Positions 23,530 to 56,551 of a stretch of DNA of 64,000 bases are shown piece after piece. The stretch spans positions 56,088 to 120,087 of the forward strand of contig DATIJN010000140.1 of assembly GCA_035478615.1 (NCBI GenBank), written 5' to 3'. Position 1 is the first letter of the stretch, and the number at the start of each line of letters is the position of its first letter. A program made the position numbers and the translations under genes. This DNA comes from Candidatus Saccharimonadales bacterium. GTDB taxonomy: Bacteria; Babelota; Babeliae; Babelales; Chromulinivoraceae. A model generated the notes under the pieces. The model did not search any database. It was not told the origin of the DNA and was given only the letters and a program-made list of their open reading frames with translations.

Positions 23530-24609
23530 TTACGCTATTAAAATAAAAGAAACCGTGGTAGACGCTGTATTGGTTGTACTACTATTTGGCGGTACTGTTA
23601 AGGCAGTAGGTCCATTACCAGAAGAAGCACATACGGCTAAAAAAGATCCAGAGGCAGCAACCACCAAAGCATCACCCACAATTTGAGATGTACCTGTGGC
23701 TCTACCTACATTACTATAAGTCAATGCGGTCATACCTACCAAAGTAGTCCCATAAAACAAAGTCATACCGCCATCCTCATTGATAGTAGCTTGAAATACT
23801 ATTTTATAAATTCCTGCAGTAGGAAGCGTAAACACTGTCCCAGATGCTGTAAAAGGACCTTGAATAGCAGTTGTCACGGTAATACCTATACCATTAACCA
23901 CTGTTCCTGAATAGGTAAAGGGTTGTCCAGAGGCAACTGTGGCTGGTTGTGACCCTGATTGAAAAAATTGAGAAGCACTTACTAATGACCCGGTCGGACC
24001 AGTGGCACCTAATGAACCGGTTGGGCCAGTGGCTCCTACACTTCCTTGTAATCCAGCAGGTCCAGTGGCACCTAATGAACCGGTTGGGCCAGTGGCTCCT
24101 ACACTTCCTTGTAATCCAGCAGGCCCAGTTGTTCCTATTTGTCCTGTAGGTCCTGTTGCTCCTACATTTCCTTGCAATCCAGCAGGCCCAGTTGTTCCTG
24201 TTTGTCCTGTAGGTCCTGTTGCTCCTACAATTCCTTGTACCCCAGCAGGCCCAGTTGTTCCTGTTTGTCCTGTAGTTCCTGTTGCCCCTACAATTCCTTG
24301 TAACCCAGCAGGCCCAGTTGTTCCTGTTTGTCCTGTAGGTCCTGTTGCTCCTACATTTCCTTGCAATCCTGCAGGTCCAATTGGTCCTGTTTGTCCTGTA
24401 GGTCCTGTTGCACCAGTATTAGAAGCGGTACCAGCAGGACCAGTTGGACCAGTTCTTCCAGTCGGTCCAGTTGGCCCTGTTGGACACTTACATTTTTTAT
24501 GTTTATGACATTTCTTCTTTTTATGACATTTCTTTTTGTGACAATGTCTGTCATTGTCATGGCATGGATCACATTTTGCTTCTTTAAGACATTTTGGACA
24601 GTCACACAT
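23530..24609 (-). CDS. Collagen-like protein with Cys/His/Lys-rich N-terminus and C1q/BclA-like C-terminal domain
   Basis: About 55 uninterrupted G-X-Y triplets. N-terminus is [41 protein letters not shown]. The C-terminal non-collagen beta-rich domain contains [16 protein letters not shown]. Confidence 0.8.
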
Positions 24610-24711: not shown

Positions 24712-27560
<2,849 letters not shown>

Positions 27561-39658: not shown

Positions 39659-40504
<846 letters not shown>

Positions 40505-40552
40505 TTATATATATATATATAAAATATATAAAAAATATATATTTTTGTAAAA

Positions 40553-41824
40553 TTATGATAAATTACCAAATACTGGTAAATGCATTTCACCATAATTACA
40601 TCCAGATACAGGATTGGTAATCACTTCATTAAAACTAGGAGCATAGGTTCCCATATGATTACCAAACGTGGTTATAATTCTATCATAAGCCAATCTAAAA
40701 CTACTGAAACAACATGTTCCAGATATAGCAGTTGATTGAATGACAGCTGGTGTTGTACCTAAAATATCAGAAATTAATTTTTGTGACGATCCATTTTGAT
40801 TGGTATCAGCCATCATAATAATTTGACTCGTAGTTTGAATACCAACTGTATTAAATGCATTTTGTAATCCAGATATATAACTATCACGATCGTGAGTAAA
40901 ATGGGAACCAACGACATAGACATTAAAATTAGATTGATTTTTTGATGTAAATTGTTGAATTAATGTTGGTCTACCATTTGCATCTGTACTATCAGCAATG
41001 CAAAATTTATAAGCATTACCAACGGGTTGCCACAGATTTTGATTATAAATTAAGGTAGTAACATCACCTGATGTGATTGGTCCAGAACCACAATGGCCAA
41101 CAATTTTAGTATAGTTAGATGGTGGTTGATATTGATCATATTCTAATTCAATGATATTTGCAAAATCAACATTTCTTGATACTATATTACTATTAATATA
41201 ATCTATCGCGACATTATAACAACATTGATTAGTAAAACATTGCCAATGTGGATTCCATTGGAATAAAGAAATGGCAGGACCATTATATTCAGGAGAACCA
41301 GATTGATGATGGCGTAATGTCATGCTACCACTTACTAATAAACCAGACATTGAATTTTGACTCGTCACAATACTTACATTTTGTATTTTATCAATGGTCA
41401 ATTTAAAACCTAATGGTAATATCACCGTAGTGGATACACCCGGTACGGAACCCACCGTACTGACTCCGATAATATTTGTCATAGTCATATCATCTGGGTC
41501 ACGAACCGATACACCAATAGTACGTTGACTTATATCATCACTAGGTTGATAAGTTAAATTTGCACCTATAAAATAAGTACCAGGCAATAATGTAAATGTA
41601 CCATTATAATACATAATATGTGAACCACTAATAAACCAATTGATAATTTGTTTTTGATTCGGCTCGATGAATTGATTGGTTACTACTCCTGATAGATTAG
41701 GAATTGGTTCAGGTTGTATTTGATTTTCTTCTTTGTTACGAAATATAAAATATAAAAAAATAACAATAGCAACAACAAAGACAACGACAACAAATATAAT
41801 TAATATGACAATACCATTATCCAT
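40553..41824 (-). CDS. Membrane-anchored protein: jelly-roll-like domain + endonuclease/exonuclease/phosphatase (EEP)-like domain
   Basis: N-terminal anchor IVILIIFVVVVFVVAIVIFLYFIF. C-half carries, in EEP order, LFQWN, NIIELE, VVGSHFTH, IIMMADTN, LAYDRII, GEMHLPV. Confidence 0.45.
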   Translation of the reverse strand: MDNGIVILIIFVVVVFVVAIVIFLYFIFRNKEENQIQPEPIPNLSGVVTNQFIEPNQKQIINWFISGSHIMYYNGTFTLLPGTYFIGANLTYQPSDDISQRTIGVSVRDPDDMTMTNIIGVSTVGSVPGVSTTVILPLGFKLTIDKIQNVSIVTSQNSMSGLLVSGSMTLRHHQSGSPEYNGPAISLFQWNPHWQCFTNQCCYNVAIDYINSNIVSRNVDFANIIELEYDQYQPPSNYTKIVGHCGSGPITSGDVTTLIYNQNLWQPVGNAYKFCIADSTDANGRPTLIQQFTSKNQSNFNVYVVGSHFTHDRDSYISGLQNAFNTVGIQTTSQIIMMADTNQNGSSQKLISDILGTTPAVIQSTAISGTCCFSSFRLAYDRIITTFGNHMGTYAPSFNEVITNPVSGCNYGEMHLPVFGNLS

Positions 41825-41850
41825 TTAAAATAATTATTAAATATAATTAT

Positions 41851-42552
41851 TTAATTATTTTTACCTTGCGCAATATACAACAACACACGTTCATTGGGTA
41901 ACCAATGATGTCCAGGATTGCGGACGAGTTGAACATACCATGTGGTTTGACTAGTAAAATCTTCTGGTTTTGCCTGATCTGGGGGATCAATTGTTCCCAA
42001 AGTAACATGATTACTACCCCAAGGTTTCGTCCAAGAACCACCAGCAGAAGTTTGTAAATAGTTTTTCAATGTGTTAATGGTTGACGCACCATATACCATC
42101 ATAATGACTAAATTTTTTGATTTGGCTTGTTTTACTTTTGTTGTAATTCCTGGTAATTGTAAATTCCATTGCGTATTATTCATTCTAAATCCTTGCATCG
42201 CATTGACTATACTATAATTTGATGGCATGGATTGTGATGGAAATAACGTCATATGATATCCACCATACTTTTTTGCCTCTTTGTTCAATGGTGGTTGTAT
42301 AGCAGGGACACAATATAAAGAATATTTAGTCGTTCCACCCAAATCTAATTCAATAGGCAATGGTTCGGCGTCGATGACGTCGGTTTCTTCGATATCGTCA
42401 TCCGCACCGATGATATCATCTTTGATATCATCCTTATTTGATGGTTGATGAACTAAATAAATAATTAAAATGATGATAGCAACAATGAATAAAATAAAAA
42501 CGATACCAATAATAAACCATATGGCATAATTTGGCGATTCTGTTTCGTTCAT
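41851..42552 (-). CDS. Membrane-anchored 2H phosphoesterase-like protein
   Basis: N-terminal anchor IWFIIGIVFILFIVAIIILIIYLV and an acidic linker. Two H-x-T-x motifs, GGYH(100)MTLF and SNH(182)VTLG, lie 82 residues apart. Confidence 0.5.
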   Translation of the reverse strand: MNETESPNYAIWFIIGIVFILFIVAIIILIIYLVHQPSNKDDIKDDIIGADDDIEETDVIDAEPLPIELDLGGTTKYSLYCVPAIQPPLNKEAKKYGGYHMTLFPSQSMPSNYSIVNAMQGFRMNNTQWNLQLPGITTKVKQAKSKNLVIMMVYGASTINTLKNYLQTSAGGSWTKPWGSNHVTLGTIDPPDQAKPEDFTSQTTWYVQLVRNPGHHWLPNERVLLYIAQGKNN

Positions 42553-42583
42553 TTATAATTATAAATTTTATAATTATAAATTT

Positions 42584-43231
42584 TTATATATTCATCATAA
42601 TACAAAATCCTTCAATCTGACACACCACATCAGCTAAATCATCTTTTTTTTTATTTTTTTTCAATAACGATAATGTATACTCGTCGTTTCGTTTTAACGA
42701 AAGTTCCGTTGCTTTTTCAACCGCCCATTTTTTCAATTCATTTTTATTACATTTCGGCGCGCCGAGCATTTTACCTTTTACTTTTGCATCTAATTCAATG
42801 ATTGACGGTAATAAGGGTAAATCTTTTAATGTTAATAAAAAATAACTTAAAATATGCTGAGCTACTCGCGTCGCTTGATAATTGGTTGGTAATTGTTTTT
42901 CAATCAATACGTAATGCGTACTAGCATAATACTCATGCAAATTATTTAATATATCATTAATATTATTATACATGTTATTTGCTTCAGCATGATCTATTGT
43001 TTTCATTTCCCATGGGGAAAATTTACCCGAGTATAAACAGACAACATTGTCACCTGTACGTTGTTCGACACGGATGGCTAAATTTTTAATTGCTGGATCG
43101 ATAGATATGAATTGTATTAAATCAGACTCCCAACATCGTTTTTTAATATCTGTGGTATGGGGATAATATAATGTGTATAAACTTTTACTAGGTTGTTGCG
43201 TTTTGGGAACTTGTAATCCATAATATGACAT
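42584..43231 (-). CDS. Holliday junction resolvase, poxvirus A22/RuvC-like
   Basis: FISIDPAIKNLAIRVE (first catalytic Asp strand), VLIEKQLP, KKDDLADVVCQIEGF. Confidence 0.65.
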   Translation of the reverse strand: MSYYGLQVPKTQQPSKSLYTLYYPHTTDIKKRCWESDLIQFISIDPAIKNLAIRVEQRTGDNVVCLYSGKFSPWEMKTIDHAEANNMYNNINDILNNLHEYYASTHYVLIEKQLPTNYQATRVAQHILSYFLLTLKDLPLLPSIIELDAKVKGKMLGAPKCNKNELKKWAVEKATELSLKRNDEYTLSLLKKNKKKDDLADVVCQIEGFCIMMNI

Positions 43232-43748: not shown

Positions 43749-43765
43749 TTTTGTATTATAATAAA

Positions 43766-45259
43766 ATGTTTAAACAAGATGATATAAAAAAAATAGAATA
43801 TGACCATATTGAATATCAAATACGATTCAACGACATGAATCGTACCCAATTTCAACACATGATAAAACATATTCAAAATCCTAACACGACCATATCAACC
43901 AATTATTACGATGTTAAAAATAATATTAAAAAAACCTATTTATTAACTGAACAAAATGAAGTAGAACATGAAACAATTCACTTTTATTGTAAAAAAACAA
44001 TACATACTATAAATCACCCCGATTATCCAATTTCTTTGTTGGTTCAACAAAATCAACCCACGATGGAAACGGATGATTTATCGTTAACGATAAATAAAGA
44101 TAAATTAAATTATCATTATATCATCAATGATGATATTACCTTAATATTATCTGAAACGACAATGGATATGATGACCACGTATCATATGAAAATACAATTT
44201 AAAAACACAGATTCATTAACTATTGTGAATGAAATGATTGTCAATCTATTGATGATGATGAATAATACAGAAGTATTGTATACAGAACATGAGCGGTTAT
44301 CTATGATTCATGATTGTTGCCATGCATTAAAAATACCATTATCTAACGATTTAGACAATGTATTTGTCAAATTACAACACATCAAATTAACTGATATCAA
44401 TCAGTTAACTGGTACATACGTTGTATCAAACAAAGCCAAAGGTACTCGTACATTACTTATATTTCATCATACAGGTATTTGGCTCGTTAAACCTAAACAA
44501 CCTTATCATTATAATTTGTTGTTAAAATATGATGATAATCATCTTTACCGTTATTTGATTAATTCTTGGCAATTAACCATTTTTGATGGCGATATCATAA
44601 AACCGTTAAACAAAACAGATTATGAATTTAACTACCGATATTGGTATTTAGCACATGATTGTTTAGTATTTAATCATCATGACATACGACATATGACATA
44701 CGATAAACGTATTGATTATGCTAAAACATGTCAAAAATTAATCACTTGGTATATTGAAGATGAATTTTTATGTTTTAGTTTAAAATCAACGCGTGGATTC
44801 ATTGCTGGAGATGCTGATATGGTTGATAAAATCAAATACATTATGACGATAGGCGAGGTGTTGAATTATGAACATACAGGTCTTGTTTTTACACCAAATA
44901 GTCAATATGATAATAATAAAACATATAAATTATATTACCCATCCCAAATTACTATTGATTTTGCTATCTATGATTCGGGAAATCCGAATCAGTTGAAATT
45001 ATACGTTTATGATCAAGAAAAAATGCAAGATGTGGAGTTTGTTGGTACACAACAACTCCCGTTTGACGAATCAATGATTTTACACTCATCTTTGATGCCT
45101 TATTATAATAATAATAAAATGATTGCTGAATGCCGCTGGGATCAAGTTTTAAACAAAATGGTATTTGTCAAAATAAGATCAGATAAATATGAACCAGATG
45201 ATATTAGATTAGTGATTGAAAATTGGCAAAATATCAATGATCCGATTATTGATTGTTAA
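43766..45259 (+). CDS. Degenerate paralogue of the capping-enzyme triphosphatase-guanylyltransferase module
   Basis: Collinear with residues 1-500 of ORF 51794-56551 (VVSNKAKGTRTLLIFHHTGIWLV vs VIAHKADGERHYLIYNPIGIWLV; ITIDFAIY..LKLYVYD vs ITIDFEIV..INLYVFD; IENWQNINDPI vs ESNWHDIHDPI), but catalytic residues are replaced. Track start 43751 is TTG; ATG is at 43766. Confidence 0.6.
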   Translation: MFKQDDIKKIEYDHIEYQIRFNDMNRTQFQHMIKHIQNPNTTISTNYYDVKNNIKKTYLLTEQNEVEHETIHFYCKKTIHTINHPDYPISLLVQQNQPTMETDDLSLTINKDKLNYHYIINDDITLILSETTMDMMTTYHMKIQFKNTDSLTIVNEMIVNLLMMMNNTEVLYTEHERLSMIHDCCHALKIPLSNDLDNVFVKLQHIKLTDINQLTGTYVVSNKAKGTRTLLIFHHTGIWLVKPKQPYHYNLLLKYDDNHLYRYLINSWQLTIFDGDIIKPLNKTDYEFNYRYWYLAHDCLVFNHHDIRHMTYDKRIDYAKTCQKLITWYIEDEFLCFSLKSTRGFIAGDADMVDKIKYIMTIGEVLNYEHTGLVFTPNSQYDNNKTYKLYYPSQITIDFAIYDSGNPNQLKLYVYDQEKMQDVEFVGTQQLPFDESMILHSSLMPYYNNNKMIAECRWDQVLNKMVFVKIRSDKYEPDDIRLVIENWQNINDPIIDC

Positions 45260-51793: not shown

Positions 51794-54700
51794 TTAAATC
51801 TTATGAAATAACCAGCAAGGTTGTGGATTTTTCGGTTGTTTATTATTATCAAATTCAGTATAACTAATTACTCCTAAAAATTCAGCATCGTCATGAATAT
51901 CAATGAAAATATCGACCATCTGTTCAGTATAGTTTGCTACATCTTTTATATCGTTAATAATAATCACCATGTGTCCGTTTTTATCTAAAACGTCCCACGA
52001 TTTATTAAGTGAAGCGATTAAGAAATCATCAAACCATGTATTTAAATCACGATTAAAAATGGATTGTGTTTCTTCATCTGTATATACTTCTAAATTGAAG
52101 TAAGGCGGGCTTGTTATAACGAGGTCATATGTCGTATTCTCTGGTAATATAGCGGTTTCAAACGATGATTGTATCATGATCAATTTATTTTTATCAATAC
52201 CAAAATGGTTAATGATGTCTTGATATTTTGGATGTAAACAACTGTTTGGATCAACGCCAACATACAAATCTACCCCAGCAGCCATAGCACCAATCAGTCT
52301 ATCACCCCATCCTGCTGAAAAATCAAGGATACGATGTGCCTTAAACATTTTAATAAATCCAACCACGATTGTTGGTCTGAAAGAGGTTACTTCGCCAGCA
52401 AGTCGATATATAGCTTCACGTAAACTATATTGACTTGTATTATGGTACCATTCTTGTGATTTTTGATAAACAAAATCCTTATTTTGTTGCCAGTAATCAT
52501 ATGGACTTAATGGTTGATCATATCGACGTGCTTTCATGCGACATTCATCGACAAAATAATCCGAAATGAGATTATATTTCAAATAATCTTCAGATTTGTT
52601 ATTAATTAATAAATGATTATATTTAAATTTTTTATTGATGTACCAATCACCTGTAATATTACGTATCGTATATGGCATGCGCACTGTTGTAAACTTGTAA
52701 TTTTTTAAATTTTTAAAACGTTTATCAATATCAAAAACATTGATACTGTATTTTTTATAGGGAAAGTCATCATACGGACTTTGAAAAACTTGATAGTAAA
52801 GACGCTGTGGATTATTATTTTGATAATAATCAAGGTAAATGGATTTAAGTTGATGTTTTGAAAATAGAGCGTCAATTTGTTGTTTTGTCATTAAATGAAG
52901 CGGATCTTCTTTTTCCTTTTCTTTTACATACCAAAATAGATGGATGAGTTCGATAAATTGTAAAAATGCATCAGTTTGATCGTCATCGTGTTCACGTATG
53001 ATAACAATCCCTCCAGGCATTAAAATACGCGCAACCTCATTCATGATGTGTAATCTATTGTCTGGTGGTATATGATGTAATACAGCAAACAATAATACAA
53101 CATTGACACTTTTATCAGGTAATGGAATATTTGAATTATCATAAGTTAAAACGGTCACATTATTTAATGTTGGTAATTTTTGATCAATCGCGTAAACATT
53201 TGATTTGTTTAAATGGTAGTATTCAGCCACAGCTGATACAATATCACCTTTTCCAGCACCAATATCAATTAATATCATATCAGATGTATTAAAATTTAAT
53301 GTTTTTAATATTTTATCAACACTTTTAACGCGGTCTTCAATACGCTCAGCCGATTTTGTTTTTTTTGTTAAAACCAATGAATTGAGCAAATTTTCTAAAT
53401 CTTGTTCAGGTTGTACGGAATTAAATAACATTTTAACCTTGGATAAAATATCAATAGGACTAGTATCGTAATGTTTTTTGATTGTATTGACTAATGCATG
53501 AACATAAAAATCAGATGGTGCATATAAATTGGATAACATTTCAAAAATAGGTTCATCAGATGGGATTAATGTTGATAAATCAATTTTTTGCTTATTAATC
53601 AAATTGATTAATTGATGATCAACGTGAACTTGATCAACATTCACTTTTTGTTTCAGTTTACTAATTAAATCGTCATTGTTGTCAAACAATGTTCTAATAC
53701 CTTCATCTTCTTGACTACCAATGACTTCGTAATGATTATTTAAATTTAATAATAATATGCTATATTTGTAAATATAGCTGTCATCACATTGATAGGTTGA
53801 TTTATATAATGTTAAATCTTCATCGTAAGTAAATAAAACAATATCAATCTGAATGAGATAAGATACTAAACTTAATAAATCATCGAGCGGTTGATTGGAT
53901 TGTAAATACCATTTTAAACCTGATAATGTGTAATCTTTTATCAATATTATATCGCCTTGGTTGATATAATTTAAAACTTGTTGTAATAATAGTTCAGCAA
54001 ATTGTCCATGATTGTAATTAATCCACACTTCTTTTGTTAATTTAGATGACAATTCAATCCTAAATTGTTTAATCAATGCGCTGCGTGTGATGGCGTCGGT
54101 TTGATTTTGATAATCTTCAGAATAGGCCATTAAAATCGCTGATAAAAATGAGTTATTTTTATCATTAACCGTACCTATTCTTACCATGTGTTTGTGTAAT
54201 AATGTATTAATGGGTTTGATATCGTTATTGGCTAGTGGTGATAGGCGATTAAAAACAATCATGGGATATTGAATATCAGGTAATTGTATATTATTTTTAT
54301 CGACAACAATATCTTTTATTTTTTGATAATAACCATAGGTGAATAATGATGAATAGGTTTTAGCATCATCGGATAATAACAATTCATCAGTTGCCCATCG
54401 TTGCTCAATTAATTCGATACCAAATTGACGTAATTTTTTAGTCAATAAAGGTAATGTCACTAAAAATTCCCATTGTTTATCAACAATGCCAGAAATTTGC
54501 GCACGCACAAATTGATTATCGTACAATGTAAATTGAGCATCATTTAAAATTAATGTGTCATGTTGTTTTAAATACGGTAGTAGTTTATCACCATCAATCG
54601 AAAAAAACACAATATAACCCCCCACTGCTAAATTATTGGCTATCGTGTTAGCAAGCGCTTGGACATGTTTATCCGATGCCCAGAAAAAAGATAATGATAA

Positions 54701-56551
54701 CATTAACGAGATGACATCAACTTTAGATTTAATAGTATTGGTAATAAGCTTCGTATCTTCACCCGTTGTATTGATTGTCACAACTTTATCAGCTAAGGCT
54801 GTTTTTGACAGCCTTTTTAATAATTCATCCAAATTTTTAGCGTTCGGTTCAACAGTAAAAACTTTTCCTGCTCCCGATTGGATCCATTTTTGAATATCAC
54901 CTCCTTTTCCCCCACCAATATCAAGTAACATATAATGATGTTTTATTTTTAATTGATTAAAATGAGGATATGGTGTTACAAGGCCATATAACAACTTTTT
55001 AATTTGATTATGATATTTTTTAACAAATTCTAATGTATCACCGATCAAGTCACTTTTTAATATCGGATCATGGATATCATGCCAATTTGATTCAGCGATA
55101 TCTAATTGATTGGGCCCTGATTTATCATGGCGTATTTTAAGCGGTTTTAATTTATGACAAAATTTGTCATAAAACGTTTCCACAATTTTATGATGATATA
55201 GCTGATAATCATCATAAAATGATTGATCAATCATATCATCCGATATTGGATAAAAGGGTACTTTTTTGTTTGTTTTCGTATCAAATACGTATAAATTAAT
55301 TTGTTGCTGATTATTTTTAACAATTTCGAAATCAATGGTTATTTTATGCGGTGGTTTCCACTTGCAAATATCAGGATAATTTAATAACTTTCTCTTAGAA
55401 AGAGGAAGTGTATGACTGTTATAATTGTAACGATTTGTTGGCGTGATGATAAAACCATCTTGTGGATAGGGTAATAAGAGTTGTTCCTGAAACAATGTTT
55501 TCATGACGTTATAAAACCCATTTAATGTGATTAAATGGGTTTCTTTTTTAACAAATTCATACAACATTGTTTTATCAACAATGGTATTAATATGATCACT
55601 GCGTGATTGTAAAGTATCATGACGTATATCTTGATCGTGGTAAATCAAACAATCATAAATCAATACATAATAAGTTACACCATTAATATCTTTAACCACT
55701 TCACATTCGTAAACATCTAATGATTTATAAATAGCAACAAGACGCGATGATGGTACTAATAAATTAAAATAATTTGATGATACTAACCAAATACCGATTG
55801 GATTATAAATTAAATAATGTCTTTCACCATCCGCTTTATGAGCAATGACATAATTTGTGATGGTGTTATTCACTATACCACCATTGATTAAATCAATATA
55901 TTTAATGTTTCTCGCTTTGGTTAAAATATCTTTACTCAAATGTTTAAGTCCTTTGAAACCTAAGATGGTATTCATTTGATTAATCAAATGATCAATATCA
56001 CGTTTTAATACAAAATTTTCCGATTGATTTATAATTTTATAAATGTATAAAATGGATTGAATAAAATTTTCAAAATGAAAATTTTTAATATCACCAATAT
56101 ATTCAAGTTCAATTTCGTAGGGTTGTTTTTTATTCATAACCATGGTTAAATCGGCGCGATAATGTTTATGAATCATGAATTGATGGCGTAATCGGTGTCT
56201 TGTGTGTATTGGCGAGCCTAAAGGATTATGGTTTAGTAATTTTGTTTCTTCACTGATACTGACAACAAATCCATATACATTTAAATAACGTGAATCATCT
56301 TTGATGCGTACTTTTTTCTCAAATGTCGATTCATTTTTGGTGACAATTTGCCTTACATGATCAGTAAATTGATATACGGTTGATTCTTCAAAAATCTCGT
56401 CAAAATGTTGTTGTAAATGTTTTAATAATAAATCATAGATTGAATGAATTTTGTATTCCGGTGTAATTTTAAATTTGACCTCAATTTCCAAATGGGACAA
56501 GTCTGATGGATTAATCGATACATCCGATAACAATTCATCAAAATTCAACAT
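51794..56551 (-). CDS. mRNA capping enzyme (TTM triphosphatase + guanylyltransferase + cap N7-methyltransferase) fused to an OTU-like module and two additional SAM methyltransferase domains
   Basis: HLEIEVKF (res 20-27) and YEIELE (145-150); HKADGER (K239), QDGFIITP, CKWKPPHKITIDF; MLLDIGGGKGGD (541-552); NDKNNSFLSAIL (796-807) ... NNHYEVIG (938-945); ILIDIGAGKG (1093-1102) + VVLLFAVLHHIP + MPGGIVII; ILDFSAGWG (1408-1416) + LVITSPPY (1477-1484). Confidence 0.85.
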   Translation of the reverse strand: MLNFDELLSDVSINPSDLSHLEIEVKFKITPEYKIHSIYDLLLKHLQQHFDEIFEESTVYQFTDHVRQIVTKNESTFEKKVRIKDDSRYLNVYGFVVSISEETKLLNHNPLGSPIHTRHRLRHQFMIHKHYRADLTMVMNKKQPYEIELEYIGDIKNFHFENFIQSILYIYKIINQSENFVLKRDIDHLINQMNTILGFKGLKHLSKDILTKARNIKYIDLINGGIVNNTITNYVIAHKADGERHYLIYNPIGIWLVSSNYFNLLVPSSRLVAIYKSLDVYECEVVKDINGVTYYVLIYDCLIYHDQDIRHDTLQSRSDHINTIVDKTMLYEFVKKETHLITLNGFYNVMKTLFQEQLLLPYPQDGFIITPTNRYNYNSHTLPLSKRKLLNYPDICKWKPPHKITIDFEIVKNNQQQINLYVFDTKTNKKVPFYPISDDMIDQSFYDDYQLYHHKIVETFYDKFCHKLKPLKIRHDKSGPNQLDIAESNWHDIHDPILKSDLIGDTLEFVKKYHNQIKKLLYGLVTPYPHFNQLKIKHHYMLLDIGGGKGGDIQKWIQSGAGKVFTVEPNAKNLDELLKRLSKTALADKVVTINTTGEDTKLITNTIKSKVDVISLMLSLSFFWASDKHVQALANTIANNLAVGGYIVFFSIDGDKLLPYLKQHDTLILNDAQFTLYDNQFVRAQISGIVDKQWEFLVTLPLLTKKLRQFGIELIEQRWATDELLLSDDAKTYSSLFTYGYYQKIKDIVVDKNNIQLPDIQYPMIVFNRLSPLANNDIKPINTLLHKHMVRIGTVNDKNNSFLSAILMAYSEDYQNQTDAITRSALIKQFRIELSSKLTKEVWINYNHGQFAELLLQQVLNYINQGDIILIKDYTLSGLKWYLQSNQPLDDLLSLVSYLIQIDIVLFTYDEDLTLYKSTYQCDDSYIYKYSILLLNLNNHYEVIGSQEDEGIRTLFDNNDDLISKLKQKVNVDQVHVDHQLINLINKQKIDLSTLIPSDEPIFEMLSNLYAPSDFYVHALVNTIKKHYDTSPIDILSKVKMLFNSVQPEQDLENLLNSLVLTKKTKSAERIEDRVKSVDKILKTLNFNTSDMILIDIGAGKGDIVSAVAEYYHLNKSNVYAIDQKLPTLNNVTVLTYDNSNIPLPDKSVNVVLLFAVLHHIPPDNRLHIMNEVARILMPGGIVIIREHDDDQTDAFLQFIELIHLFWYVKEKEKEDPLHLMTKQQIDALFSKHQLKSIYLDYYQNNNPQRLYYQVFQSPYDDFPYKKYSINVFDIDKRFKNLKNYKFTTVRMPYTIRNITGDWYINKKFKYNHLLINNKSEDYLKYNLISDYFVDECRMKARRYDQPLSPYDYWQQNKDFVYQKSQEWYHNTSQYSLREAIYRLAGEVTSFRPTIVVGFIKMFKAHRILDFSAGWGDRLIGAMAAGVDLYVGVDPNSCLHPKYQDIINHFGIDKNKLIMIQSSFETAILPENTTYDLVITSPPYFNLEVYTDEETQSIFNRDLNTWFDDFLIASLNKSWDVLDKNGHMVIIINDIKDVANYTEQMVDIFIDIHDDAEFLGVISYTEFDNNKQPKNPQPCWLFHKI

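Follow-up and report, generated by a model that had tools for sequence, protein, structure and literature searches.

What would a giant virus do with two neighbouring genes for membrane-anchored phosphoesterases, and are the two linked by more than their position? The window, a 64,000-nucleotide stretch, comes from an AT-rich Mimiviridae-like giant-virus contig that was deposited as a 'Candidatus Saccharimonadales' MAG. MutS, VLTF3, capping enzymes, Erv1 and collagen-like genes are viral neighbours of the pair; the Erv1 thiol oxidase gene lies two genes away. The two genes, like all features given below, are on the minus strand, in tandem and in the order ORF B to ORF A. ORF B (233 aa; 41851..42552, stop included) encodes a predicted N-terminally anchored 2H-fold phosphoesterase, and ORF A (423 aa; 40553..41824, stop included) a transmembrane (TM) anchor, a beta insert and a predicted Cys-rich EEP-fold phosphoesterase. 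An AT-rich spacer of 26 bp (41825..41850) runs from the ORF B stop to the ORF A start. Both reading frames were found as given in the preliminary description of this DNA, with every motif quoted there at the residue named. A perfect 15-bp tandem repeat (AAAATTTATAATTAT, two copies; 42555..42584) just in front of the ORF B start codon (ATG) is a candidate promoter element. A search upstream of both genes for shared promoter motifs (AAAATTGA, TCTA and ATAATTAT) gave nothing above generic AT-richness.

Each protein was proposed to start with a strongly hydrophobic anchor, and this was borne out. The Kyte-Doolittle mean over a 19-mer reached 3.93 at the N-terminus of ORF A (span aa 4-28; 41741..41815) and 3.73 at that of ORF B (span aa 9-34; 42451..42528). 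AlphaFold models both segments as single long helices, covering residues 3-31 in ORF A and residues 9-34 in ORF B (pLDDT >90 in the latter).

Behind its anchor, ORF B (AF2 model pLDDT 87.9) carries a D/E-rich, poorly conserved acidic linker that is predicted to be disordered (aa 35-70; 42343..42450; pLDDT <50 at aa 40-66), followed by the predicted 2H catalytic domain (aa 71-233; 41854..42342; pLDDT >95). Two H-phi-T-phi motifs, and no others, are present: H100-M-T-L (42244..42255), which opens strand 101-110 in the model, and H182-V-T-L (41998..42009), within strand 181-187. Finding at least two H-phi-[TS]-phi motifs by chance is rare, occurring in a fraction of 0.003 (0.3%) of shuffles of the domain. 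Comparison of the model with the PDB by Foldseek returned 2H proteins for all of the best 29 matches, among them LigT, YjcG, Usb1, the rotavirus VP3 PDE and Acb1, at modest scores (E 1.1e-3 to 6e-2, TM-scores 0.45-0.57, probability up to 1.0). Matches in BFVD agreed with this assignment. The structural neighbours include the rotavirus VP3 PDE, MHV ns2, the torovirus pp1a PDE and phage Acb1; LigT, YjcG and Usb1 rank highest, ahead of these viral antagonists. Model and motifs thus point to a divergent 2H (two-histidine) enzyme, a fold assignment that is moderate but consistent.

The motif histidines are conserved in orthologues, as the preliminary description required of a 2H enzyme. All 21 relatives have H100 and 19 of the 21 have H182, the other two (P0086 and P0087) having Tyr instead; T102 hardly varies, and position 184 is occupied by Thr or Ser among close relatives. 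The family is small: its search, over 1.84 billion cluster representatives, found no more than 19 relatives, and scans of IMG/VR and GTDB genomes added no further loci. A TM anchor was found in 12/21 members and is absent from one close orthologue and from all distant relatives. A 226-aa second gene beside P0019 (locus L005), considered as a possible ORF B paralogue, proved on comparison not to be one.

Sequence profiles told less. Searches of Pfam, NCBIfam and PDB sequences with the single ORF B protein and with family profiles gave nothing but TM-driven noise and matches below threshold, and the curated 2H profiles (PF13563, PF02834, PF22547 and others) did not match the window ORF B. PF22547 (2H-SAK) appeared below threshold in 4/21 relatives, at 14.6-16.6 bits for a cut-off of 27; these faint matches were co-linear, spanning model positions 13-122 of 124.

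ORF A (AF2 pLDDT 84.6) is built of three parts. Anchor and catalytic domain are separated by an insert (aa 44-173; 41306..41695) predicted to be all-beta, with about 10 strands, at moderate confidence (pLDDT ~60-80); GTFTLLPGTYFIGANLTY lies within it at position 75. The jelly-roll proposed earlier for this half of the protein may apply to the insert. The insert is poorly conserved, was seen in one other protein only (P0002, locus L001) and had no match in Pfam or PDB sequences. Kinship with the head domain of the collagen-like protein encoded next to the pair was also considered, and was dropped because the two showed no similarity. The predicted EEP catalytic domain (aa 183-423; 40556..41278; pLDDT >90) contains eight cysteines, including two CC doublets, and the six motifs WN190, IELE225, SHFTH307, ADTN339, YDRI380 and MHLPV414 in the canonical EEP order. 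Motif VI departs from the canonical S-D-H, in which Asp is adjacent to the catalytic His: ORF A reads G-E-M-H-L-P-V (family consensus E-F-H-x-P-V), its acidic residue being two positions before the His.

Structure comparison upheld the proposed EEP assignment of this half. Foldseek returned 201 PDB matches at E<=1e-3, all of them EEP proteins among the matches listed, the best being Nocturnin (4.8e-12), DNase I (1.5e-11) and TDP2 (7.9e-11); PDE12 and ANGEL2 also matched, the five together falling between 5e-12 and 1e-9. The C-terminal domain is thus unambiguously predicted to have the EEP fold. Of the best 50 structural neighbours, all but one have nucleic acids or nucleotide phosphates as substrates; the sugar phosphatase Bt3783 (4c1r) is also among the structural matches. 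These best 50 include no sphingomyelinase or inositol 5-phosphatase, which disfavours the lipid second messengers named earlier as a possible target, and a lipid phosphoesterase was rejected on these structural neighbours as the primary explanation of ORF A.

At the sequence level ORF A, as single protein or as family profile, matched nothing at threshold in Pfam, NCBIfam or PDB sequences. PF03372 was not detected in the window ORF A and matched just 2/74 of its relatives (best E 0.0019). A faint NCBIfam match to MnuA (E 0.069) was seen, and in a sub-threshold search profile matches to TDP2 put H308 on the SHLE motif of that protein and D340/N342 on its GDTN. A PF28423 annotation of ORF A, 'Epiregulin_C (weak)', was dropped, as the TM helix is the most likely source of this match. 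Since neither protein reaches any Pfam threshold, both represent undescribed divergent families, and their folds are established by structure comparison only. A profile match to 2H or EEP families had been expected for both; the faint PF22547 and PF03372 matches in some relatives fall short of this, which at the sequence-profile level formally speaks against the preliminary description.

The catalytic positions of ORF A are well conserved across its 74 homologues. H308, D340, N342, D381 and R382 are invariant, and N191, E226, H311 and H415 nearly so (N191, E226 and H415 at least 90%). With the catalytic residues of ORF B likewise conserved, both enzymes are probably active. Six of the eight EEP-domain cysteines are conserved throughout the family, and strong N-terminal anchors are present in every member of the viral clade. 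Outside the window, members of the family come only from a few giant-virus contigs and from eukaryotes of dinoflagellate type; about 60 members are GC-rich and eukaryotic (Effrenium, Polarella, MMETSP dinoflagellates). These eukaryotic homologues typically have a signal-like N-terminus and a C-terminal TM segment. Some relatives carry a short collagen-like GPTGP stretch between anchor and catalytic domain, and one, P0045, is named EEP domain-containing in UniRef. Scanning IMG/VR with the family gave no further loci, and a scan of JGI metagenomes gave only GC-rich, eukaryote-type homologues on short contigs.

Are the two genes linked? They are adjacent in three different arrangements, in a small sample with many short contigs: in the order of the window (window/L006), in tandem from A to B (L002) and head-to-head with a 32-bp spacer (L008). 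The spacers of adjacent pairs measure 26-34 bp; at L001 the two genes are 2.4 kb apart. Adjacency kept through three rearrangements is hard to explain without selection. Two proteins, P0093 (851 aa; on a giant-virus-like contig) and P0099 (883 aa), join a PF03372 EEP domain (E 2.6e-13 and 4.6e-17, respectively) to an ORF B-like C-terminal 2H domain. The P0093 EEP domain was considered as a member of the ORF A family; hhalign shows no relation between the two, so the fusion backs the linkage at the superfamily level only. The association of ORF A with ORF B rests on the three adjacency arrangements together with independent EEP-2H fusion proteins. In more distant relatives the pairing was not seen: four remoter ORF A homologues (L010-L013) had no ORF B in the flanking sequence available, and P0019, P0084 and P0086 had no EEP or ORF A gene nearby. 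Taken together, these results indicate that the two genes are evolutionarily linked, within the closest clade. Synteny and co-conservation, which the preliminary description set as a check, appear to hold there and are not general.

In which compartment would the enzymes work? The charges flanking both anchors are nearly neutral, and the charge-difference rule weakly favours N-in/C-out for both. Eight cysteines in the EEP domain, six of them family-wide, suggest an oxidising compartment, and this Cys-rich domain, together with the type-I-like eukaryotic homologues, suggests an exoplasmic location for ORF A. DNase I is an example of a secreted, disulfide-bonded EEP enzyme. In poxviruses, a thiol oxidase forms disulfides in the cytoplasm. 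The distant ORF B relatives and the EEP-2H fusions have neither signal peptide nor anchor and look cytosolic, which suggests a cytosolic location for the 2H domain. With exoplasmic ORF A homologues and cytosolic-looking ORF B relatives, topology could place the two enzymes apart.

The reading we prefer, to which we give about an even chance, is that the pair forms a two-step module for processing nucleotide or RNA-end phosphoesters on a viral or ER-derived membrane. Both enzymes would act in succession, at the same membrane, on one ribonucleotide-type substrate such as an oligonucleotide, a cyclic nucleotide or an RNA end. First the 2H enzyme, acting without metal, would cut or open a bond between ribose and phosphate and so make or use up a 2',3'-cyclic phosphate. 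What is left, a phosphodiester or a terminal phosphate, would be hydrolysed by the EEP enzyme with Mg. Known reactions fit such a sequence of steps: a 2',3'-cyclic phosphate is what 2H phosphoesterases leave behind, the 2-5A that they attack is also a substrate of the EEP enzyme PDE12 (PMC8406329), and another EEP enzyme, ANGEL2, takes off terminal 2',3'-cyclic phosphates (PMC9525292). The purpose of such a module may be to silence nucleotide-based immune signals of the host or to recover phosphate and nucleotides.

Two other readings, as good as each other, appear unlikely. In one, the module would destroy a host nucleotide immune messenger, 2',5'-oligoadenylate-like or a cyclic oligonucleotide, which the 2H enzyme would linearise or cleave and the EEP enzyme would degrade completely at the signalling membrane. 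Viral 2H PDEs are widespread and commonly aimed at immune nucleotides (bioRxiv 10.1101/2025.08.21.671373), and immune antagonists (rotavirus VP3 PDE, MHV ns2, torovirus pp1a PDE, Acb1) are among the structural neighbours of ORF B, as is the 2-5A-degrading PDE12 among those of ORF A (PMC8406329). The best matches of ORF B are nevertheless the housekeeping enzymes LigT, YjcG and Usb1 rather than the viral antagonists, and the ORF A family is composed mostly of eukaryotic membrane proteins that are apparently exoplasmic, an unobvious place for cytosolic messengers. A specific form of this idea, in which a membrane-tethered 2H-then-EEP line removes the nucleotide second messenger of an antiviral pathway in protists, possibly alveolates, and the fusions are its single-chain version, is more doubtful still.

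Salvage of phosphate and nucleotides, the other of these two and no more probable than messenger destruction, would make the pair an auxiliary metabolic module acquired from a host of alveolate or dinoflagellate type. In an exoplasmic or lumenal space, the 2H enzyme as a 2',3'-cyclic-nucleotide phosphodiesterase and the EEP enzyme as a phosphodiesterase/phosphatase would turn RNA breakdown products into nucleosides and phosphate for virus replication. The dinoflagellate-rich membership of the ORF A family, the signal-like N-terminus and C-terminal TM segment of its eukaryotic homologues, the conserved cysteines, the presence of secreted DNase I among the best structural matches and the weak N-in/C-out preference of both viral anchors all agree with this. 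It sits less well with the lack of signal peptides in ORF B relatives of eukaryotes and in the fusion proteins, and the Erv1 enzyme encoded two genes away could make disulfides in the cytoplasm instead. That the functions are unrelated, the genes being neighbours merely as membrane proteins of one expression class, with ORF A acting on lipids or sugars and ORF B as an RNA-repair-type cyclic phosphodiesterase, is improbable: co-occurrence confined to one clade, a fusion-protein EEP domain from a different family and the match to Bt3783 would fit, but adjacency, with 26-34 bp between the genes, has survived three rearrangements, P0093 and P0099 are independent fusions of these two superfamilies, and the best 50 matches of ORF A lack sphingomyelinases and inositol 5-phosphatases.

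Returning to the two-step module, we note that the pair is concrete and assayable, and so suited to a substrate hunt. Viral 2H phosphodiesterases are now mined as markers of nucleotide-based immune conflicts, and a membrane-anchored 2H enzyme coupled to an EEP enzyme, as neighbour or fusion, in a giant-virus lineage would extend this theme to protist viruses. Messenger removal, if true, would point to undescribed nucleotide-based immune signalling in unicellular eukaryotes; salvage, if true, would make the pair a novel type of auxiliary metabolic module, apparently common to dinoflagellate-type hosts. Present Pfam models miss both families, which could enter annotation resources. The earlier statement that no equivalent had been described stands for the pair, within the literature searched, and must be qualified for its 2H member, as divergent viral 2H phosphodiesterases are already an active research topic.

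How does the pair compare with known systems? Like the EEP superfamily (the CCR4-like Nocturnin, PDE12, ANGEL2 and CNOT6L; DNase I and TDP2), ORF A is predicted to form a four-layer alpha/beta sandwich and keeps the catalytic order N191, E226, H308, D340-x-N342, D381 and H415, its SHF-H and ADTN aligning with SHLE and GDTN of TDP2. It differs in having E-x-H rather than S-D-H in motif VI and in adding eight cysteines, a TM anchor and an extra beta domain.

ORF B resembles the 2H superfamily (LigT/ThpR, YjcG, Usb1, the rotavirus VP3 C-terminal domain, coronavirus ns2/NS4b and Acb1) in overall fold, as judged by its best 29 PDB matches, in a domain size of ~160 aa and in its two H-phi-T/S-phi motifs, each of which the model places on the central beta-strand of one lobe. 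It is viral, as are VP3, ns2 and Acb1, and its nearest profile, PF22547 (2H-SAK), stays below threshold (16.6 bits at best, cut-off 27). It has an N-terminal TM anchor and an acidic linker, and domains of its type are paired or fused with an EEP enzyme. To our knowledge, none of the 2H enzymes compared has an anchor with such a linker.

A close parallel to the pair is provided by the fusions P0093 and P0099, which come from giant-virus-like metagenomic contigs. Their EEP domain is canonical PF03372 and not detectably related to the ORF A family; they carry an uncharacterised middle region of ~300 aa and no TM anchor, and the second 2H motif of P0099 is degenerate (H-I-Q). What they share with the window is the combination itself, the two superfamilies that are encoded there by neighbouring genes being united in one protein.

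The two consecutive minus-strand genes of the preliminary description were recovered from the ORF list as ORF B (41851-42552, 233 aa) and ORF A (40553-41824, 423 aa), with an AT-rich spacer of 26 bp between them. Their motifs fall where they had been placed, with HMTL at 100 and HVTL at 182 in ORF B, and WN190, IELE225, SHFTH307, ADTN339, YDRI380 and MHLPV414 in ORF A. Both N-termini are strongly hydrophobic (Kyte-Doolittle 19-mer means of 3.93 for ORF A, aa 4-28, and 3.73 for ORF B, aa 9-34), and AlphaFold models this stretch as a single long helix in each protein. The whole gap between the end of the upstream gene, stop codon included, and the start codon of ORF B is taken up by a perfect tandem direct repeat of 15 bp (AAAATTTATAATTAT x2, 42555-42584), which may be a promoter element. 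ATAATTAT is present twice in the spacer upstream of ORF A. A k-mer check for promoter signals upstream of the two genes revealed general AT-richness and nothing more.

The surrounding genes encode a MutS, a VLTF3-like late transcription factor, an Erv1/ALR thiol oxidase, a GT25 glycosyltransferase, two capping-enzyme-type proteins and three collagen-repeat proteins, a set typical of Mimiviridae-like giant viruses. One capping-enzyme-type gene (43751-45259, plus strand) encodes a guanylyltransferase-like protein of 502 aa; the other (51794-56551, minus strand; 1585 aa) fuses a capping-enzyme C-domain to a cap N7-methyltransferase and a further methyltransferase domain. The collagen-triple-helix-repeat genes lie immediately downstream of ORF A (39659-40504, minus strand), at 23530-24609 (minus) and at 25800-27560 (plus). 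Long antisense ORFs within them, e.g., 40143-40550 (plus) and 25715-27100 (minus), are probably repeat artefacts. The 215-aa gene next upstream of ORF B (42584-43231, minus strand) matches Ydc2/RuvC-type Holliday-junction resolvases only faintly (E 0.25) and may represent the resolvase core gene of giant viruses. GC content is 25-33% nearly everywhere (∼29%), rising up to 43% at 26-28 kb because of collagen repeats. The identical deposited proteins, P0001 and P0013 (VLG50_08040 and VLG50_08045), are annotated as hypothetical and assigned, with their 158.6-kb contig, to a MAG labelled 'Candidatus Saccharimonadales bacterium'. Since gene content and ∼29% GC fit a Mimiviridae-like giant virus, this label probably arose by misbinning or contamination.

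The C-terminal half of ORF A had been read as an EEP domain. Its AlphaFold model (pLDDT 84.6 overall, >90 in aa 185-423) matched 201 PDB entries at E≤1e-3, and the best 50 of these were all EEP-fold; EEP matches include Nocturnin (4.8e-12), DNase I, TDP2, PDE12, ANGEL2, CCR4, ExoIII and the LINE-1 endonuclease. A first search found 12 homologues and a C-terminal-domain profile 73, one of which is named EEP domain-containing in UniRef. Across the resulting 74 sequences, H308, D340, N342, C371, C372, D381 and R382 are invariant, while conservation reaches 90% or more at W190, N191, H193, E226, H311, H415 and several cysteines. A profile of these 74 sequences, run against PDB sequences, gave 15 matches, all sub-threshold, including 12 to TDP2 and one to 3l1w, itself an EEP-fold match of the model by Foldseek; the alignments place SHF-H of ORF A on SHLE and ADTN on GDTN. 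We regard the EEP assignment as secure at the level of fold and active site. The family is nonetheless a divergent one, since the Pfam EEP profile PF03372 was detected in only 2 of the 74 members (E 0.0019), motif VI reads E-x-H where canonical EEP enzymes have S-D-H, and the EEP domain carries eight cysteines. Searching curated families with the ORF A sequence gave no match beyond TM-driven noise and a faint hit to the EEP-type membrane nuclease MnuA. A precomputed label, PF28423 'Epiregulin_C (weak)', is most likely a TM artefact.

About 14 of the 73 homologues are AT-rich proteins of giant-virus type, and the remainder come from dinoflagellate transcriptomes or genomes (Effrenium, Polarella, MMETSP) or GC-rich (51-68%) metagenomic contigs. 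Because the family alignment (A5; loci L016-L025) joins AT-rich giant-virus contigs (26-41% GC) to GC-rich dinoflagellate-type sequences, it suggests that genes have passed between these viruses and a host lineage of alveolate-like type, and hints at the host.

ORF B relatives numbered 7 by word-indexed search and 19 by exhaustive HMM search; with only 19 among 1.84 billion cluster representatives, the family is rare. H100 is conserved in 21/21 sequences and H182 in 19/21, and two H-phi-[TS]-phi motifs arose by chance in 0.3% of shuffles of the domain. In the AlphaFold model (pLDDT 87.9 overall, >95 in aa 70-233) each motif lies on a central strand, and the acidic linker (aa 40-66) is disordered. 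The best 29 PDB matches by Foldseek were all 2H proteins, including LigT, YjcG, Usb1, rotavirus VP3 PDE and Acb1, at modest E values (1.1e-3 to 6e-2) and TM-scores of 0.45-0.57. A viral structure library agreed (torovirus pp1a PDE, VP3, Acb1, a Hyperionvirus 'HXTX phosphoesterase' and a Fadolivirus NUDIX fusion). No Pfam 2H model reached threshold for the family; the commonest weak match, PF22547 (2H-SAK), was found in 4/21 members at 14.6-16.6 bits (cut-off 27), and its alignment is co-linear over nearly the whole model, both motifs included. We assign ORF B to the 2H fold, active site included, with good but not absolute confidence. The two exceptions at H182, P0086 and P0087, carry Tyr in place of the second catalytic His. 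Assembly GCA_034680565.1 holds both a canonical ORF B homologue (P0018, L001 8001-8633) and the anchored divergent paralogue P0086 (L014 10001-10735), in which the Tyr-bearing 2H domain may be inactivated or repurposed.

Linkage of the genes was scanned on relatives' contigs, using all six-frame ORFs and HMMs of both domains. At the four loci with the closest ORF A homologues (59-67% identity), the pair is in B-to-A tandem in the window/L006 (26-bp spacer), in A-to-B tandem in L002 (34 bp), head-to-head in L008 (32 bp; here the ORF B copy lacks the TM anchor), and convergent, 2.4 kb apart, in L001. Adjacency that outlives three rearrangements argues for selection. Beyond these loci the pairing was not seen: no ORF B lay in the available flanks of L010-L013 (ORF A 45-55% identity) and no ORF A or EEP neighbour on the contigs of P0019, P0084 and P0086. 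IMG/VR and GTDB scans added no further loci. The association is real but confined to one clade, and the contigs that show it are few and for the most part short.

Two distant ORF B relatives, P0093 (851 aa; giant-virus-like contig) and P0099 (883 aa; second motif H-I-Q), begin with an EEP domain of PF03372 type (E 2.6e-13 and 4.6e-17), followed by a ∼300-aa middle region and a C-terminal ORF B-like domain. Since their EEP domain has no detectable relation to the ORF A family, they are a 'Rosetta stone' at superfamily level only, and as such independent support for linkage. The middle region (aa ∼400-680 of P0093) is conserved in P0099 and also precedes the 2H domain of P0092 (L007 10001-12556). 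It has no Pfam match, and knowing its identity could show which pathway is involved.

Every member of the viral ORF A clade has a strong anchor at its N-terminus; eukaryotic members mostly have a weaker, signal-like N-terminus, and ∼30 a strong C-terminal TM segment. Signal-like N-termini, C-terminal TM segments and conserved cysteines suggest that the EEP domain is exoplasmic or lumenal. The close ORF B clade is anchored, and its acidic C-terminal flanks weakly favour an N-in/C-out orientation. Anchor and signal peptide are both missing from P0083, the L008 copy, all distant relatives and the fusions, suggesting cytosolic enzymes. In poxviruses a viral oxidase forms disulfides on the cytosolic side, and by analogy the viral Erv1 oxidase two genes downstream could let them form there.

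The all-beta region predicted at moderate confidence between anchor and EEP domain (aa 44-173) is present only in the window protein and P0002. It matched no known domain in Pfam, PDB sequences or the neighbouring collagen-like protein, so that the earlier 'jelly-roll' label is a guess. In the viral homologues P0002, P0005-P0008 and P0011, a short collagen-like GPTGPxG stretch separates anchor from EEP domain, at the position of the insert. L002 has a collagen-head-like ORF (95-481) just upstream of the gene pair. These features hint at a stalked, possibly trimeric display of the enzyme.

ORF A and ORF B combine membrane anchors and evolutionary linkage with two conserved active sites, each from a different phosphoesterase superfamily. 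Enzymes of the 2H group work without metal and leave or open 2',3'-cyclic phosphates. With Mg2+, the EEP enzyme PDE12 breaks down 2-5A, a 2H substrate too (PMC8406329), and another, ANGEL2, removes terminal 2',3'-cyclic phosphates (PMC9525292). We consider it an evenly balanced proposal that the two enzymes form a two-step line acting on an oligonucleotide, a cyclic nucleotide or an RNA end, in which ORF B would cleave or open a ribose-phosphate linkage and ORF A would hydrolyse the remainder. As specific readings of its purpose, destruction of an immune messenger and salvage of nucleotides or phosphate rank about equal, each rather unlikely by itself. A lipid substrate, also raised earlier, is disfavoured by the lack of any sphingomyelinase or inositol phosphatase among the best 50 of 201 structural neighbours of ORF A.

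In our literature search, we found neither a giant-virus 2H enzyme like ORF B described, nor a membrane-anchored 2H enzyme, nor a 2H-EEP pair. A 2025 preprint shows great diversity among viral 2H PDEs, which can often be recognised by structure only (bioRxiv 10.1101/2025.08.21.671373), and ORF B fits among them as a new lineage. ORF A represents a divergent family of EEP enzymes that is also new, and the new elements are the pairing or fusion of the two enzymes and their anchoring.
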